From IMG/VR virus record IMGVR_UViG_3300045988_141797: a stretch of 64,000 nucleotides of DNA, one strand, 5' to 3'. Under the pieces are notes generated by a model that had not been told where the DNA came from, did no database searches, and saw only the letters and a program-made list of their open reading frames with translations. The translations under genes and the position numbers were made by a program. Position 1 is the first letter of the stretch, and each line of letters starts with the position of its first letter. Positions 3,373 through 44,168 of this stretch are shown here, in pieces. This DNA is from a virus (Duplodnaviria > Heunggongvirae > Uroviricota > Caudoviricetes).

Positions 3373-3488
3373 ACGAACATAGCCCCTTTAACAAGCAATA
3401 AATCGAAGGGCAGTATGTTCAGTTTGTGATTTCCAGTGGTCTTTTGTTTTGAGAAATGGCCCCACCCAGGTTGGCGGGGCCTGGTTTG

Positions 3489-4331
3489 CTAAGGTGCAAA
3501 ATTATAATCCAGCGCCCAGGCGTCGAGCGGGAGTTCATCGAGATGAAGCACTCTTTCCGTCGTCCGGTCTGGCCTTCCTGCGAACTGGATGCCGCCTATT
3601 TGAATGATCGTATCGCTAATAGATAGCTCATCGACCATCTCTTGCGTCGTGTACACCCCCTCAATAAAGGACACTTCCGCAGATAAGCAATTCAGGATCT
3701 CCGCCATTTCCGGCAATGTTGCGCTTAACTGGAAAGAAACACCATCAAACACGATATGCAATGGCAATAGCGGCGCTATAACCGTATCAAAATCAGCAAG
3801 TAGCTTCTGTACAGCAACGTCTCGGTCATCGCTATCATAAGCTCGATACAGCTTATTTTGGTTGACGACAACCAGCCCTCTGGATGTCAGGAAAAACTCA
3901 CCATATTGTGCCTGAGCGGTCGGTATTTCATTTGCGGTCGCGAAGAATGAACCATAGGGATGTTTTTCTGTATCGACAGGCGCATACAAAGGTTCCCATG
4001 AGACGGGGATTGTGCCAAATTCACGCCAGAACGTTTGCTCTATCGGCCTTACTGTTCCTTTGAAGTGCACCTCATCCAGTCGTTGAGCTAATAGCATTGG
4101 CCTGCGTGTTTTGTCCGTTTCTGTGATAACAAAGAAACGACCATATTCAGCAATGCGAGTGTCCATATCCTCCCTTGCCATTGTGAAAAACGATTTACGG
4201 TTGCTTATTCGCGTGAGAATAGGTTCAACCGATTCATTCCACACGTCCTGAATCGTATCAACAAAGGCGGCCCACAATTTAGAATCCTGTTTAAATTGCG
4301 TCAGACGCTCTTTTAGCCAGTTATTCTGCAT
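3489..4331 (-). CDS. putative baseplate/tail protein
   Basis: 280-aa ORF within the baseplate gene string; position only. Confidence 0.35.
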   Translation of the reverse strand: MQNNWLKERLTQFKQDSKLWAAFVDTIQDVWNESVEPILTRISNRKSFFTMAREDMDTRIAEYGRFFVITETDKTRRPMLLAQRLDEVHFKGTVRPIEQTFWREFGTIPVSWEPLYAPVDTEKHPYGSFFATANEIPTAQAQYGEFFLTSRGLVVVNQNKLYRAYDSDDRDVAVQKLLADFDTVIAPLLPLHIVFDGVSFQLSATLPEMAEILNCLSAEVSFIEGVYTTQEMVDELSISDTIIQIGGIQFAGRPDRTTERVLHLDELPLDAWALDYNFAP

Positions 4332-4340
4332 TGTGACCTC

Positions 4341-5771
4341 TTACGGATAGGTTATGCTGAACGTTGATGATTCCACGTCCAGATAAACAAAATCATTAAA
4401 GTACACAGCTTCTTTCATGTTCTGCGTAGCCACGTCATAAGACAGGAACATATCCAGCGATTCGATTACTCGCCAGATATCTTTTACTTTGACCTGTGCA
4501 TAACATTGCTGTGAATCGTCATCACTCTGCAATAGCTGGCTAAATGACATGGAGTCTTTACCGAAGTTCTCCTCCAGTGCCGCTTTAATTGCAGTTAGCG
4601 CGTCATCCACCAGCACACTCTTTTTTACGATACCGGTAAATTTGATGTTGAACGGCTGTTCATTGGTGGCGACGTATTCGAACTTCTTATTCAGCTCATT
4701 AGGGATACTCTCAAGGGCTGATAATATCTCTGTTTTCAGAGCTTCCTGTGTTACGCCGGGCTTGTGCCCACAAAAGAAAATTTTGTTGATATTACGCACA
4801 TCAAAGCCCGTGATTTTCTCCTGTAGCGCCTCCCCCCACACGTTAAGCCATGACGTGCCACTGACCACGTTCTGAATGAACTGGCGGTAATCACCGCCCC
4901 AAACAACCTGCTCATCGTAGGCCACATAATACTGCGCCCTGTTTCGGGTTTCCTCGGTAGTTTCCATGCCACCACCGCCAGAAATGATCGAATCGGTTTT
5001 TACTTCCAGTGATTCGACATACCCGGAGATGTTCCCTGCTGGTTCAAGTTTCTGGCCTTCAGCCAGCGTGTAATCACCGAGGCTTGCCATAATATCAATG
5101 CGTACCTGACTCCCTGCCGCTGGCATCATCCCCATTGATCCATCACCGAAGCGCACGCCGATCTGTTCTGTCGGCTTATAAACCAACACATAATGTTTAC
5201 TGTTATCCCTGGACATGCGGAACAGGGGGTTATGTGTCCATTTTTCCTCGACACCATTAGTTATCACGACAACTTCCAGGCTGGCGACTTCTGCTGTTAA
5301 CTCACGGGAAAGTAACAGCGTCAAGAATGGTGTTTCTTGCACCACGTCGAACGTTACGCTGACTGCTTCATGCTGTTTTACTTCTATGCCGGGTACTGTT
5401 TCACCAGCAGGGATAACAACACTACTGCTGGTTGCAATTGGTGTCTGGTCACTTGTCAGTAATTCAGCCCCTCCGGGTAGAGTAATATCCCTGTCGGTTT
5501 TGTTGGTGATGGAAACAGTGCCGTATGACGCATCGACCAAACGACCGACATAGCCACGGTCTTCCGCTGCCGCGAGAATACTTGCTCTACGCGTCGCGGT
5601 GGAAATGAATCCTTCTGTAAGTGCACGGCTTGCAAATGTACGCGCAATATAAACAATCTGCGCGCCCAAAACGGACTGCATTTGAATAAACTGGCTGTTT
5701 ACAAATCGCGCCCACCAGGGGTTTTCGTTCAGCTTGGCATTAAACTTGTCCAGTAATTCGGTAATACTCAC
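4341..5771 (-). CDS. putative baseplate protein (J-like)
   Basis: 476-aa ORF, stop/start overlap with the gp25-like gene; size and position typical of baseplate J. Confidence 0.4.
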   Translation of the reverse strand: MSITELLDKFNAKLNENPWWARFVNSQFIQMQSVLGAQIVYIARTFASRALTEGFISTATRRASILAAAEDRGYVGRLVDASYGTVSITNKTDRDITLPGGAELLTSDQTPIATSSSVVIPAGETVPGIEVKQHEAVSVTFDVVQETPFLTLLLSRELTAEVASLEVVVITNGVEEKWTHNPLFRMSRDNSKHYVLVYKPTEQIGVRFGDGSMGMMPAAGSQVRIDIMASLGDYTLAEGQKLEPAGNISGYVESLEVKTDSIISGGGGMETTEETRNRAQYYVAYDEQVVWGGDYRQFIQNVVSGTSWLNVWGEALQEKITGFDVRNINKIFFCGHKPGVTQEALKTEILSALESIPNELNKKFEYVATNEQPFNIKFTGIVKKSVLVDDALTAIKAALEENFGKDSMSFSQLLQSDDDSQQCYAQVKVKDIWRVIESLDMFLSYDVATQNMKEAVYFNDFVYLDVESSTFSITYP

Positions 5772-19530: not shown

Positions 19531-19605
19531 TTAGAAAAATAATTTTCGTTAACAATCTTGTGTTAGTATGGTTTAATCTTAATTTTCTAACATAAAACAT
19601 TAGAA
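19531..19605. promoter_or_regulatory. operator cluster (TTAGAAAA / TTTTCTAACA half-sites)
   Basis: several copies of the window-wide operator half-site directly upstream of the 19609 ORF. Confidence 0.5.
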
Positions 19606-39084: not shown

Positions 39085-39086
39085 AT

Positions 39087-39120
39087 GTGTTAGAAAATCA
39101 AAATTGATTTTCTAACACAA
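39087..39120. promoter_or_regulatory. perfect palindromic operator between divergent operons
   Basis: TGTGTTAGAAAATCAAAATTGATTTTCTAACACA. Confidence 0.65.
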
Positions 39121-39314
39121 AATGAAGATACTTTTTTTCAGACGCTATATCAGGAGGTCATGATGCTTGTCGCAATAAGTGCAATCCACCAGCAATCCGG
39201 TACAGAAATTGGGTTGCTATATGCCCTGTTTTTCACTGTCCTGGCGTTGTTTGAGCTGGGCATTGAACTCTTTGCTCTCATCAACTTTTGCGTAACGTTC
39301 CTGGGGAAACTTTG

Positions 39315-39926
39315 ATGTCAAAACGCATTATGAAAATTTACATCGCGGGTCCGATGACTGGTTATCCCGACTACAACCGCACAGCGTTTTTTTCGAAAGC
39401 AAAAGAGCTGATGGAGGTAGGGCATATTGTTCTGAATCCGGCGCTGTTACCTGCTGGCCTCTGCCAGAGCGAATACATGGATATTTGCCTTGCAATGGTG
39501 CGTTCGGCTAATGCGGTCTATTTGCTCAAGGGGTGGGAGGAATCAGTTGGCGCTCGTGCAGAGCACGAGCTGGCTCAAAAGCTGGGGCTGAATGTAATTT
39601 ATGAGTCACCAACCAACATTGAATGCCAGGTTGCTCCGCATATTTACCGGGAACTGGTCAATGCACTGCGTGATATCGCTGCTGTATATCACGGCACAGA
39701 ACAGCTTCGTGAGCGTTTAGCCCATACCATTTCCTATTACCTGTCTGCATCTCATGAGCACAAGCTCCGTCAGAAGGTAATGATCAAATTTATCATGAGG
39801 TTATCGAAATCCCTGGCAAGCGCCGATCCAAAGAATCCATTACCGAAAGAGGCAATGAATTACCTGAAGTCCTGCAACGTTGTTTCTGAAGATGGCGTTC
39901 TTTTGGTTAGAAGGAGTTCTGCGTGA
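39315..39926 (+). CDS. DUF4406-like (nucleoside 2-deoxyribosyltransferase-like) protein with C-terminal extension
   Basis: N-terminal KIYIAGPMTGYPDYNRTAF...VLNPAL pattern; C-terminal block shared with the 48011 ORF. Confidence 0.45.
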   Translation: MSKRIMKIYIAGPMTGYPDYNRTAFFSKAKELMEVGHIVLNPALLPAGLCQSEYMDICLAMVRSANAVYLLKGWEESVGARAEHELAQKLGLNVIYESPTNIECQVAPHIYRELVNALRDIAAVYHGTEQLRERLAHTISYYLSASHEHKLRQKVMIKFIMRLSKSLASADPKNPLPKEAMNYLKSCNVVSEDGVLLVRRSSA

Positions 39927-40240
39927 GCTGGCGGGGATGGGGAAGGGCAGAAATCATGATACTCCGCCAGTGCGCCGGGACTATGACAGTCGAGGGTATT
40001 GGGAGACTGATCGGGCGTACCGGTGGTGCTGTCAGGACTAAAGCGCGGCAACTGCGGATCAGCATGATTCTGAAAGGAGACTTTCACCAGTCAGCCAAAT
40101 ACCGGCAGAGCGATATAGAACTGGCGCGGCAGCTTCATCAGTGTGGTGTTCCCCGCCGTGAGATCGCAGAAAAACTCGAAATGCCCCTGGGAATGATTAA
40201 TCAGTACGTTTATTTCGAAAGGAGAGTACATGAAGTCTGA
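39923..40240 (+). CDS. hypothetical DNA-binding-like protein
   Basis: 105-aa ORF, overlap-coupled. Confidence 0.3.
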   Translation: MSWRGWGRAEIMILRQCAGTMTVEGIGRLIGRTGGAVRTKARQLRISMILKGDFHQSAKYRQSDIELARQLHQCGVPRREIAEKLEMPLGMINQYVYFERRVHEV

Positions 40241-40733
40241 AGGTTTAACGCCCGCACAACTGGCAGAGCGTAACGCTGAGTATGTAACGGAAATTTCCCG
40301 ACTTGAGAAAGAGCGCGCGGCGCTGGCGGCGGAGAATGCACTTGCTCGTAAAGCTGTTCAGGCATTCTGTGAGGTTGTTGGCGACAACACTGAGATTATC
40401 TCCGAGTTGGTTGGGCAAGATGGCGTTCTGGTTATTTTGAAGGCCATGAAGGCAACAGGAAATATGTCAGCCACCGACGCTTTCCTGGCTGAAATACGTG
40501 CGGAGGCACGCAACGAGGGGATTAACTACACCGCAAGCCGTCTTGCTGCTGCGTTCAATCACGGATTTATCAATAAGTCTTTGCGTGAAGTTTTCGACGT
40601 TACACGCATGATTTTGTCAGCGAAAGAAGAGTTGGCTAATGAACCGCATCCGATTGATGGCCTGTCCGGTGAATATGCGGAGAAATCCCTTGAAGAATGG
40701 GCGGAACAGATTCGCAAAGGAGTTCAGTCATGA
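40230..40733 (+). CDS. hypothetical protein, paralogous module with the 41974 ORF
   Basis: shares ERAALAAENA and [13 protein letters not shown] blocks with the 41974-42684 protein. Confidence 0.35.
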   Translation: MKSEGLTPAQLAERNAEYVTEISRLEKERAALAAENALARKAVQAFCEVVGDNTEIISELVGQDGVLVILKAMKATGNMSATDAFLAEIRAEARNEGINYTASRLAAAFNHGFINKSLREVFDVTRMILSAKEELANEPHPIDGLSGEYAEKSLEEWAEQIRKGVQS

Positions 40734-40963
40734 GCATCCGAACTGAACATGGATTTGGTCCTTCAACGGTCGAAGTCGAATGGCTTGATGATTGCCCTAG
40801 GTGCCAGCACGGCAAAGCCAGGGTAACAGGATGGTCGGTAACCAAAGATTCTTTGTGGGCGGGTGATGAGGCCGTTTGTTCCAAATGCGGTCACAAAGGT
40901 GAAATCGATGCTGATGGAGAGAATGCCTGGGTGGAAAGGGACGAAATCGAGGAGGCACAATGA
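40730..40963 (+). CDS. small zinc-ribbon protein
   Basis: CPRCQHG ... CSKCGH; AAGGAG RBS. Confidence 0.4.
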   Translation: MSIRTEHGFGPSTVEVEWLDDCPRCQHGKARVTGWSVTKDSLWAGDEAVCSKCGHKGEIDADGENAWVERDEIEEAQ

Positions 40964-41652
40964 GCAACATCGACATCGACACACTGGCGCTGCGTGAGGC
41001 GGCAGAACGTGCAATTCCGGCAATGGAACGCCTGTTAATGTTGCCAGTTGATGATGATCTGATAAGTGAACAGGAACTTAAAGATTACGGTGTGGATATT
41101 GATGCGCTCAACGCCTTCAAATTTCTGACCGGACCAGAAACCGTGCTGGCACTGCTGGATGAACGGGAAAGAAACCAGCAATACATCAAACGACGCGACC
41201 AGGAGAACGAGGAGATTGCGCTTACGGTTGGGAAGCTGCGCGTTGAGCTGGAAGGCAAAGACAGCAAAATAGCCAATCTTACCGCCGAACGCGATGCTCT
41301 TCGTGAAGGTGAGATGGGCGACGCTAGGCATAGCAACACACGGGCCGCAGCTGATATCTACTTCCAACTGGTCGAGGAGTGCGAAATTCCTGCTGGCGGA
41401 TCTCTGGTCGAGTACGTTGACGATATGCGCGAGAAGCTGGAAGCCGCAGAGAAGCGCATTGCAGAGTTAGAAAGTGGTTCTCAGGCACAAAAGTTAGTTG
41501 AAGCAATCATTGTTGCGATAGAAAACGAACAGGAAAGGCTTTTTGATGAAGATTACCTAATGGATTCGAAAGAATGCATTGACGTAATTCGTGAAGAAGT
41601 AAAGCGATGGAATGATTCCCGTGCCGCTGGCATTCGCATCAAAGGAGAGTGA
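40960..41652 (+). CDS. Ead/Ea22-like protein
   Basis: N-terminus [16 protein letters not shown]..., [35 protein letters not shown]-terminus AGIRIKGE, as in lambdoid Ea22-like proteins from memory. Confidence 0.55.
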
Positions 41653-41653
41653 G

Positions 41654-41977
41654 ATGACCACATCGCATTCTGCAATCACCCAGGAAAAAGTATTTCGCTT
41701 GCTCGAACGTCTGGAGGCGCTCGCCACGGAGGAGGATATATCCCCGGAGATGCTGGTCGAGTGCAGCCGTGTGATATTGCGTCGCAAGAACGACATCGCG
41801 CGGCTGACATCTGGCGCACCATCCGTATCAGCCAGTCCAACGCTTTATTGCAGCTTCTGCAACAAATCCCAGCACACCGTTAAAAAGTTAATTGCCGGGG
41901 ACAACGTTTTCATCTGCAACGAGTGCGTGAAAGATTGCAACAACATTATCCAGGAAGAGCAAAGGGAATCAGCATGA
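41654..41977 (+). CDS. small protein with ClpX-type N-terminal zinc finger
   Basis: C-terminal [36 protein letters not shown] closely matches the ClpX zinc-binding domain; AAAGGAG RBS. Confidence 0.6.
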
Positions 41978-42684
41978 AATTTTCCAAATTCTCGGAGTTG
42001 GTGAATAGTATTTTGTCCAACAACCACAGCCATCGTCGCGATATGGATGTAACGATCGTTGTTCATTCGCCTGGTCGCATCGGTTCAACACCATCAGTTG
42101 AGGTTCAGTCAATTCAGGTGGGTTTTGATTGGGATGCCGGGAAAGTGCTGATTTTCCCAGCACAGCCACTGACCACGCTAACACCAGAACAGATTACTGA
42201 TATCACGGATAGTGTGCGCAAAGGTCAGTCTTGGCACGCATATCAGGAATACAAGAAGCATAAAGAGCAGTTGGGAAAATTGTCGATTGAACTGGATGCT
42301 GCAAGACGGCGCATTACAGAACTGGAGAGCGAACGCGCGGTGCTGGCGGCGGAGAATGCGGAGCTGAAGTCTGTGCACCCTCAACCATTCGGAGCTGAGA
42401 TGATGAAGGCTCTTGATGCGTATGAGAAGCATCAGGATGAAGTGCCAGAGACTGGAATGCTCAATGCATTTTTCATCTTGCGCGACAGTATCCGTGTTGA
42501 CACCCCAGCCACCGATGCTTTCCTGGCTGAAGTACGTGCGCAGGGCGTGGATATGGCTCGTAACGCGATGATTGATTTTGTCGATGGTGAAGTTGGGCCA
42601 AACAAGAACGTTCCGGGGCTGATTAGAGGCGCAGAGATATGCGTAAGTATTGCTGAACAGCTTCGCAAAGGAGGCAGCCAGTGA
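41974..42684 (+). CDS. hypothetical protein, paralogous module with the 40230 ORF
   Basis: [15 protein letters not shown] and [13 protein letters not shown] blocks. Confidence 0.35.
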
Positions 42685-42956
42685 ATATCGACACGACAAT
42701 AACGATCGATACGCTCCTAAATACCGGTCTGGCACTTCTCGGTTGGCTTTACATCATGTCCCGTACATGGCGATGGCTGGGTTCCATTTTCCTGAAACAG
42801 TGGAAAAAACGGCGCAAACAGGAACTACGCCAGAAGGCATTAGAAGCGTTCTATGACGCATTTGAGCTTAGCCGCATTGAACCAGGTACAACAGCCAGGA
42901 TAGCGACAAAAGGCGACCTGATGATAGTGATGTTCAGACAGGAGAAAACAAAATGA
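42681..42956 (+). CDS. small membrane protein
   Basis: TM helix LLNTGLALLGWLYIM. Confidence 0.3.
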   Translation: MNIDTTITIDTLLNTGLALLGWLYIMSRTWRWLGSIFLKQWKKRRKQELRQKALEAFYDAFELSRIEPGTTARIATKGDLMIVMFRQEKTK

Positions 42957-43177
42957 CAGAACAGACGATGACAAATCGCGAACTTGTTGATGCCGCGATT
43001 GAACTTGCTGGCGATTTTTATTCCATGTTGGGTTACGAGCATCGACCTGGTTTTAAGTATTGGGAGTCACCGCATCCGCAAGAACAACAGGTGTTTGAAA
43101 TGGCCTGCCGTGCTTTTGAGGTTATTCGCGGTTCTGATGTGATGGAGGCCGTTGCCGACTTGGAGGATGAAGAGTGA
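42953..43177 (+). CDS. hypothetical small protein
   Basis: 74-aa ORF, overlap-coupled. Confidence 0.3.
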   Translation: MTEQTMTNRELVDAAIELAGDFYSMLGYEHRPGFKYWESPHPQEQQVFEMACRAFEVIRGSDVMEAVADLEDEE

Positions 43178-43485
43178 GCATCATTAAAGAAATGCCGGTA
43201 GAACGTGATGAATATGGCTGCTGGACACATCCGGAATATGAAAAGTTTTGCGCAGGTCGTGAATATATATCCACTGAGGAATTTGACGCCTGGATGAAGG
43301 AAAATAATCTTCAGTGGACTATTCGCAGTATGGATGAAGATCATTTTAATCTGGACGCAGATGGTCCCGATATTGCCGCCTGGGAACCAGAGCGACCAGA
43401 GGGCGAAGGATGGTTTGTTGGCTCTATTCATGACACTGAAGATGGCCCGGTTTGTATCTGGCTGCGGGAGAAGGTTGCCGCATGA
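43174..43485 (+). CDS. hypothetical small acidic protein
   Basis: 103-aa ORF, overlap-coupled. Confidence 0.3.
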
Positions 43486-44168
43486 CCCAGGCGCTGCATG
43501 AAGTGAATTTATATAGCCGTATTGATGGTTCAGGCTACAGAAACATATGGGTTGTTGGTGATCTGCATGGTTGCTACACCAGATTGATGTCTGAACTTCA
43601 TCGTGTGGACTTTGACCCGACACAGGATTTACTGATATCGGTTGGCGACCTTATCGATCGCGGCACCGAAAATGTTGAATGCCTGGAGCTATTGCAGATG
43701 CCCTGGTTTCGGTCGGTTATGGGAAACCACGAGCGATTAATGATCGATGCGTTAAGCCCCGCAGGCAACGTGAATAACTGGCTAATGAATGGCGGCCAAT
43801 GGTTCTTCATGCTGGACGCTGATCGGGAAATATTAGCCAGGGCGCTGGTGGAGCTGGTAAGACGTTTACCCTATATCATTGAGTTGAACACCGGGCATGA
43901 AACTATCGTTATAGCCCATGCCGACTATCCTGATAACGAATACCAGTTTGGTAAACCTGTTAGCGATCTCAATGTTACCTGGCGGCGTGAGCGATTTTAT
44001 GACGCGGTTGATGGTGTTGGTGGAATGATCACTGGTGCAGATAGCTTTATTTTCGGGCATACGCCAGTAAACAGCCCGAAATCTTTCTGGAACCAGCACT
44101 ACATAGACACTGGCGCGGTTTTTTGCGGAAATCTGACGCTAAAGCAGGTGAAGGGAGGCCAGCCGTAA
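43482..44168 (+). CDS. Ser/Thr protein phosphatase (lambda PPase family)
   Basis: GDLHG, GDLIDRG and GNHE metallophosphatase motifs. Confidence 0.8.

Follow-up and report, generated by a model that had tools for sequence, protein, structure and literature searches.

The gene and its operon

The window, by which we mean the whole stretch of 64,000 nucleotides that was analysed, belongs to a D6-like (P1-related) phage-plasmid of E. coli. On its plus strand lies a small gene whose product carries a ClpX-type zinc-binding domain (ZBD); the positions of the gene, of its domains and of the surrounding features are collected in Table 1. The 107-aa start was favoured over a 121-aa alternative (41612) because of the position of the AAGGAG Shine-Dalgarno sequence, and it is also the start used in RefSeq. 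The upstream Ead/Ea22-like reading frame has its stop at 41652 and the downstream one its ATG at 41974, in ATGA overlap with the stop of the ZBD gene. Since reading frames abut or overlap on both sides, the gene is tightly packed in a plus-strand operon. The exact window protein occurs in at least 975 public contigs, and its domain annotation is already public in the form of the RefSeq name. We found no functional study of free-standing or phage ClpX zinc-finger proteins in the literature; a 2019 preprint mentioned the annotation of a ClpX zinc-finger protein only in passing. The product name 'carboxylate--amine ligase', used for family members such as those of phage P88 and D6 (orf93) and in many other entries, was rejected: Pfam and NCBIfam showed the ZBD only, with no ligase or ATP-grasp domain. 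As no domain search backs this name, it appears to be an annotation error.

Table 1. Positions of the ZBD-protein gene, its domains and nearby features in the window, followed by the phage contexts of the family
Feature	Position	Strand	Remarks
Perfect 16+16-nt palindrome	39086..39119	.	Head of the + strand operon 39160-44168 holding the ZBD gene
Shine-Dalgarno sequence AAGGAG	41642..41647	+	6 nt 5' of the ATG
ZBD-protein gene	41654..41977	+	107 aa, two domains; PHROG 6797; RefSeq WP_021551796, 'ClpX C4-type zinc finger protein'
Helical hairpin, helices at residues 10-26 and 31-52	41681..41809	+	AlphaFold2 pLDDT 80-88; alignment
Ser/Pro-rich flexible linker, residues 54-63	41813..41842	+	pLDDT < 50 at 56-61; dN/dS at or above 1
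ClpX-type C4 ZBD, residues 64-102	41843..41959	+	Treble-clef beta-hairpins and C-terminal helix; profile, PDB sequence and fold matches
Zinc-ligand span including F68 (= ClpX F16)	41849..41926	+	Alignment: no variation among the 17 family sequences, nor when ClpX is included
Codon of zinc ligand C66	41849-51	+	= ClpX C14
Codon of zinc ligand C69	41858-60	+	= ClpX C17
Codon of zinc ligand C88	41915-17	+	= ClpX C36
Codon of zinc ligand C91	41924-26	+	= ClpX C39
Downstream gene: phrog_6026 N-terminal module and variable coiled-coil tail	41974..42684	+	ATGA overlap
Family context: D6-like phage-plasmids
Family context: ~108-kb phage-plasmids			e.g. PhiR41_1
Family context: lambdoid prophages			Gene between replication genes and RusA
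Family context: P2-like prophages			Gene between ParM/ParR-like genes and portal gene; protein 110 aa, hairpin clearly homologous

The neighbours of the gene encode mosaic Ead/Ea22-like proteins, DUF4752, DUF4406 and a metallophosphoesterase. Two genes upstream, an 88-aa reading frame (40697-40963; phrog_4446) has a zinc-ribbon-like CPRC...CSKC pattern and gave a weak rubredoxin-like Pfam match. The phrog_6026 module of the downstream gene, that is its N-terminal ~105 aa, is beta-rich, is without Pfam domain and was found in E. coli, Salmonella and Klebsiella prophages, in at least 252 clusters. In most of the 39 non-P2 loci that were inspected, a phrog_6026 gene stood next to the ZBD gene, but the larger phrog_6026 family is mostly without an upstream ZBD gene, and in D6 and P2-like prophages other neighbours stand beside the ZBD gene. 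An obligate partner gene could therefore be ruled out.

Between ref and the plus-strand accessory operon stands the palindrome listed in Table 1, TGTGTTAGAAAATCAA-aa-TTGATTTTCTAACACA. Its half-site was counted 11 times in the window where 0.89 were expected, with further copies at 19579, 27652, 27670, 34974, 38455, 44217, 55107, 56502 and 60944; the P1 C1 operator consensus had 0 matches in the window. The palindrome probably serves as an operator for a repressor, in overlap with a TTGATT-17-GATACT promoter, and the dispersed half-sites look like the operators of a prophage master repressor, in the style of P1 C1 but different in sequence. The operon 39160-44168 would be under repression during lysogeny and switched on early upon induction or infection, a timing that fits the early-operon positions of the gene in lambdoid and P2-like contexts.

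The ClpX-type domain and the helical hairpin

The identity of the ZBD is beyond doubt. The Pfam profile zf-C4_ClpX (PF06689) matched residues 65-101 over profile positions 2-39 of 39, with E = 9.8e-18 and 64.2 bits (cut-off 27), and the same model gave 77.2 bits for E. coli ClpX (residues 1-68). C66, C69, C88 and C91 show the CxxC-18-CxxC spacing of the zinc ligands. In a phmmer search against PDB sequences the E. coli ClpX ZBD came out on top, with 1ovx at E = 1e-15 and 2ds5 at E = 4e-15, whereas ClpX from Listeria and Neisseria scored more poorly than that from E. coli; the first place of E. coli ClpX is consistent with mimicry of the host protein. AlphaFold2, run on a 12-sequence family alignment (mean pLDDT 74), predicted for the ZBD a pair of short strands and, at residues 89-106, a C-terminal helix. 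In this predicted model Foldseek recognised the treble-clef fold of 2ds5-2ds8 and 1ovx, with an rmsd of 1.8-2.0 Å over 36-38 residues, 68-72% identity and a probability of 1.00. ClpX ZBD structures were the only confident matches in the PDB, and other ZBD carriers were the only matches in the viral library BFVD. The preliminary description had proposed a free-standing ClpX-type ZBD, and profile search, PDB sequences and fold all agree with it. A full ClpX unfoldase was ruled out: the protein of 107 aa is without AAA+ module, and the NCBIfam ClpX equivalogs TIGR00382 and NF003745 matched over profile positions 5-50 only, with 43-47 bits against cut-offs of 359-371.

Phage protein and E. coli ClpX have in common the C4 spacing, 70% amino acid identity over 40 residues of the ZBD, the predicted fold (2.0 Å rmsd) and the residues corresponding to F16 and I46. 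They differ in that the phage protein has no AAA+ module, carries its ZBD at the C-terminal instead of the N-terminal end, has an unrelated hairpin in front of it and bears the surface substitutions L42D, G18N, P31D, S32N and Y34F. Among 17 diverse family members, the four cysteines, S67, F68, V76, I80, G82, I87 and V92 were invariant in the ZBD. The hydrophobic positions are mostly as in ClpX (L/I64, F68, V76, L/I79, I80, V85, F/Y86, I87, V92, I98 and I99), with the exceptions of D94 in the window variant and Cys at 86 in some members. At I98, the equivalent of ClpX I46, 16 of the 17 aligned members have I, V or L and P0021 has Gly. Positions 70, 75, 83, 84, 93, 94 and 97 vary within the family. 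In ClpX, F16 and I46 line a hydrophobic pocket common to lambda O, trigger factor, SspB and RssB (PMC7804408). D94 of the window variant takes the place of ClpX L42, a position at which other members have V, A, L or I. Judged by helix periodicity, L42 may adjoin the docking pocket on the same face as I46, and if it does line the pocket, ligand specificity may differ from that of ClpX. Inspection of sequence and alignment by eye revealed neither an XB-like (LRVV / LKxh) tethering motif nor a conserved terminal degron. The whole protein is acidic, with a computed pI of 5.7, which argues against binding of nucleic acids.

The N-terminal segment had been called unrelated to ClpX, and this proved correct: its ~60 aa matched no domain in Pfam or NCBIfam, and they form a conserved helical hairpin. 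Residues E18, R19, E21, E26, E27, E36, R43, R44, D47, L51 and S53, most of them charged, were invariant in the hairpin among the 17 members. When residues 1-61 were searched with phmmer against 1.84 billion representative proteins, 9 hits were obtained. Seven were ZBD-fused members of the family or truncated or frameshifted copies of such members; an eighth was a repetitive protein of 1176 aa, matched in 12 stretches to residues 10-30 only, and the ninth a repetitive protein of 190 aa (P0042). Among representative proteins, the hairpin of the N-terminal 53 residues occurs essentially only together with this ZBD. Foldseek found no relatives of the hairpin in PDB and BFVD, where only the ZBD part was matched, there was no paralogue of the hairpin within the window, and a scan of species-representative genome contigs with the N-terminal domain gave nothing.

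The linker is the recombination junction in chimeric variants. Different N-termini are joined there in P0022 and P0024, and in rare chimeras the ZBD stands behind other coiled-coil N-termini, fused at the linker. Shuffling of modules among the Ead/Ea22-like genes was observed both in the window (40230-42684) and in P0008, P0017, P0022 and P0024: some ZBD proteins bear the N-terminus of the reading frame at 40230 (MKSEGLTPAQLAERNAE...), others a different coiled-coil N-terminus at the linker junction. A metagenomic protein of 145 aa (P0025) contains two tandem ClpX-type ZBDs connected by an acidic Ser-rich linker, with 122.6 bits in two stretches in Pfam; it may represent the ZBD dimer in single-chain form.

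Distribution, selection and relation to host clpX

A 1.9-kb part of the window (40900-42800) aligned over 95% of its length, at 99% identity, with a 92.8-kb non-mobilizable plasmid of E. coli, which carries genes for tail, baseplate, Ref, Icd, a theta-subunit homologue and an S24 (HumD-like) peptidase. In phage D6, a relative of P1 which lysogenises as a plasmid, the ZBD gene is orf93, with 83% amino acid identity. The match to the phage-like plasmid and D6 orf93 confirmed that the protein is phage-encoded, as had been stated before. The family consists of a few sub-families found only in temperate phages of Escherichia and Salmonella. A blastn search of 5426 complete E. coli genomes detected the gene in 195 of them (3.6%), about half of the copies being on plasmids, and all listed matches in these genomes were annotated as a small zinc-finger protein. 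Since clpX is universal and only 195 genomes were matched, clpX is not among these matches. The gene was intact in 32 of the 34 IMG/VR viral loci and in all annotated records inspected. Two IMG/VR loci, L030 (4001-4849) and L045 (3917-4822), have a deletion past the fourth zinc cysteine which fuses the gene in frame to the downstream one, giving proteins of 282-301 aa; these are probably inactivated copies. In the P2-like prophages of UTI89, CB9615 and DA33135 (L002-L004, ~3480-5150), the ZBD gene comes after ParM-/ParR-like plasmid-segregation genes, in the variable region between replication endonuclease and portal gene. Segregation cargo of this kind is unusual for an integrated prophage.

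Pairwise Nei-Gojobori dN/dS values, calculated for few sequences and short regions, were 0.23-0.39 for the hairpin (phage-plasmid clade pairs with measurable dS) and 0.23-0.37 for the ZBD in long-range comparisons. Very close pairs gave 0.65-0.98 for the ZBD, values that are noisy as they stem from very few substitutions. On the evidence of the long-range comparisons, the family is under purifying selection. These sequence data are best explained by a small functional protein that selection has maintained and that combines a helical hairpin peculiar to the family, a flexible linker and a genuine ClpX ZBD.

Relation to the host gene was examined at both levels. DNA identity between the ZBD region and E. 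coli clpX was 62% in the window and ranged from 62 to 65% when the P2-type was included, and synonymous sites were saturated. The expression 'almost a copy' of the ClpX ZBD in the preliminary description can thus be kept for the protein, with its 70% identity, but not for the DNA. Recent capture from E. coli clpX was ruled out by the saturated dS, the low DNA identity and the absence of clpX from the blastn matches, and capture was therefore either ancient or from another species. The P2-type ZBD is 77.5% identical to E. coli ClpX in amino acids, and all three sub-families stand at 70-78%, with 64-66 bits in Pfam against 77 for ClpX. The ZBD has been held near the ClpX protein sequence since capture, as would be required if it mimics the host domain.

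Proposed action on ClpXP and competing explanations

The ZBD dimer of ClpX serves as tethering site for SspB, RssB and UmuD and as recognition site for lambda O and MuA. [quoted passage not shown] Because of this inhibition in trans, a role of the phage protein as a competitor or decoy that soaks up ligands of the ClpX ZBD is the best-supported mechanism, although we would place it somewhat short of an even chance. The preliminary description had suggested a dominant-negative or adaptor mimic that redirects ClpXP, which is plausible. Its suggestion that phage replication or repressor proteins are protected in this way found no support, since the family spans four phage types with unrelated replication modules. 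The gene occurs on four temperate-phage backbones that are unrelated and replicate by different modules, and it has no obligate neighbour; this points to a target in the host and not to a phage-specific one.

As a competitor, the protein would be expressed alongside other accessory early genes of temperate enterobacterial phages. Its ZBD most likely folds as the ClpX ZBD does and would dimerise in the same way. The dimer would present a hydrophobic pocket for the adaptors SspB, RssB and UmuD and for N-domain-dependent substrates of the lambda-O-like and MuA-like kinds. By competing with host ClpX for these ligands it would slow N-domain-dependent ClpXP proteolysis and leave pore-recognised substrates largely untouched, and the charged hairpin may add oligomerisation or a second binding partner. 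A substrate that would lie outside its reach is, for example, the antitoxin CmdA of the ClpX-dependent CmdTAC defence, which has an ssrA-like C-terminal degron and does not need the ZBD (bioRxiv 10.1101/2024.02.24.581848). As many ClpXP substrates bypass the ZBD, for instance by ssrA-like degrons, any effect would be partial. The competitor role is favoured by the invariant zinc ligands and F68, by an I98 that is mostly kept, by a ZBD that has stayed near ClpX despite saturated dS, and by a gene that is intact and widespread. Against it stand D94 at the position of ClpX L42 and the dN/dS of 0.65-0.98 in close pairs of the ZBD; a pure decoy would, moreover, leave the strongly conserved hairpin unexplained.

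A bolder version goes further. The captured ClpX docking domain and a targeting or oligomerising hairpin would together constitute a natural 'anti-N-domain' factor, a general anti-adaptor by which delivery of the SspB, RssB and UmuD types would be blocked simultaneously with N-domain-dependent substrates. We put this forward tentatively, as an idea that is rather unlikely to hold in full. If it were true, RpoS, UmuD'/HumD or phage initiators, for example, would be stabilised on induction or infection, or ClpXP-dependent host responses would be blunted, and AAA+ proteases would have, in this protein, a first natural inhibitor that works by mimicry of the protease's own recognition domain.

The main rival to an action on ClpX ligands is a function unrelated to ClpXP. 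Treble-clef fingers serve as compact dimerisation and protein-binding modules in many contexts, and the ZBD may be just such a zinc-stabilised module, with the hairpin acting on another host or phage target as in Ead/Ea22-type accessory proteins. This would suit the position of the gene among mosaic Ead/Ea22-like genes in D6-like, ~108-kb phage-plasmid and lambdoid contexts, the tail that the P2-like downstream protein shares with the same PHROG family, the rare chimeras in which the ZBD follows other coiled-coil N-termini, a hairpin constrained at least as much as the ZBD, and the variability of position 94 (= L42) and several surface positions. A mere folding or dimerisation module should drift, however, whereas three sub-families have kept 70-78% identity to E. 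coli ClpX along with the docking-pocket residues, and reach 64-66 bits in Pfam where ClpX itself reaches 77. We regard this rival as doubtful, but it deserves to be weighed seriously. Were it correct, a host recognition domain would have been recruited as a building block in the Ead/Ea22 accessory gene pool.

Improbable in our eyes is a docking of the phage protein to ClpX itself, in which the phage ZBD would heterodimerise with the ZBD of a ClpX subunit and park the hairpin on the unfoldase, either as a new adaptor delivering hairpin-bound cargo or as a poison of N-domain movement. A mixed dimer would be allowed by the hydrophobic residues of the ZBD, which are mostly those of ClpX. The invariant charged surface of the hairpin resembles a specific binding site, and the order of binding domain, flexible linker and ClpX-tethering element parallels that of SspB. 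The ClpX ZBD is, on the other hand, reported to be a very stable constitutive dimer (Wojtyra 2003 and Donaldson 2003, as cited in PMC7804408), so that subunit exchange with assembled hexamers may be slow; nor was there an identifiable cargo, or a conserved neighbour gene to supply one. Least probable by far is a component of a toxin-antitoxin system or of anti-phage defence, an explanation that the data refute weakly. It could draw on a match to phrog_4681 ('antitoxin'), which at E = 0.1 is not significant, and on the site of the P2-like gene between replication gene and portal gene, a variable region known for defence cargo. It is opposed by the fact that PADLOC gave no hit for the ZBD protein or its neighbours, by the lack of a partner gene conserved across contexts and by the location of the gene inside early accessory operons in lambdoid and D6-like phages.

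The activity proposed for the competitor resembles that of the isolated recombinant ClpX ZBD, which binds adaptors and inhibits adaptor-dependent degradation in trans (PMC7226468; Wojtyra 2003 and Thibault 2006, as cited in PMC7804408). That ZBD is a laboratory fragment, whereas the phage protein is a natural, selected gene product with an extra conserved domain and a putative activity. Small proteins that retune an ATP-dependent protease of the host at the recognition step are also familiar in the anti-adaptors IraD, IraM and IraP, and phages possess inhibitors of AAA+ proteases in T4 PinA and T7 Gp4.5 against Lon, lambda CIII against FtsH and SPO1 Gp53 against ClpC. The competitor would be like all of these in being small and acting at the recognition step, but they have no kinship to the ZBD protein in sequence or fold, and to our knowledge none of them copies the substrate-docking domain of the protease itself. 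ClpX-type zinc fingers are also encoded by the jumbo phages PA5oct and phage G, there as part of complete ClpX unfoldases, and ZBD-only reading frames without hairpin exist in Pseudomonas phage PP9W2 (65 aa) and Caulobacter phage Cr30 (gp170, 41 aa). These small ZBD-only products are far less ClpX-like, that of Cr30 scoring ~30 bits. Free-standing ZBDs are therefore present in other phages too, and the new part would be the proposed action, by which a virus copies the recognition domain of a protease.

Under the control of ClpXP stand sigma-S, proteins of SOS mutagenesis and of cell division, several antitoxins and, on the side of the phages, some proteins for replication, transposition and repression. 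If the competitor role is true, these temperate phages would have a new viral route to reprogramme host proteolysis, and their protein would be a ready-made tool to switch off adaptor-dependent ClpXP degradation selectively.
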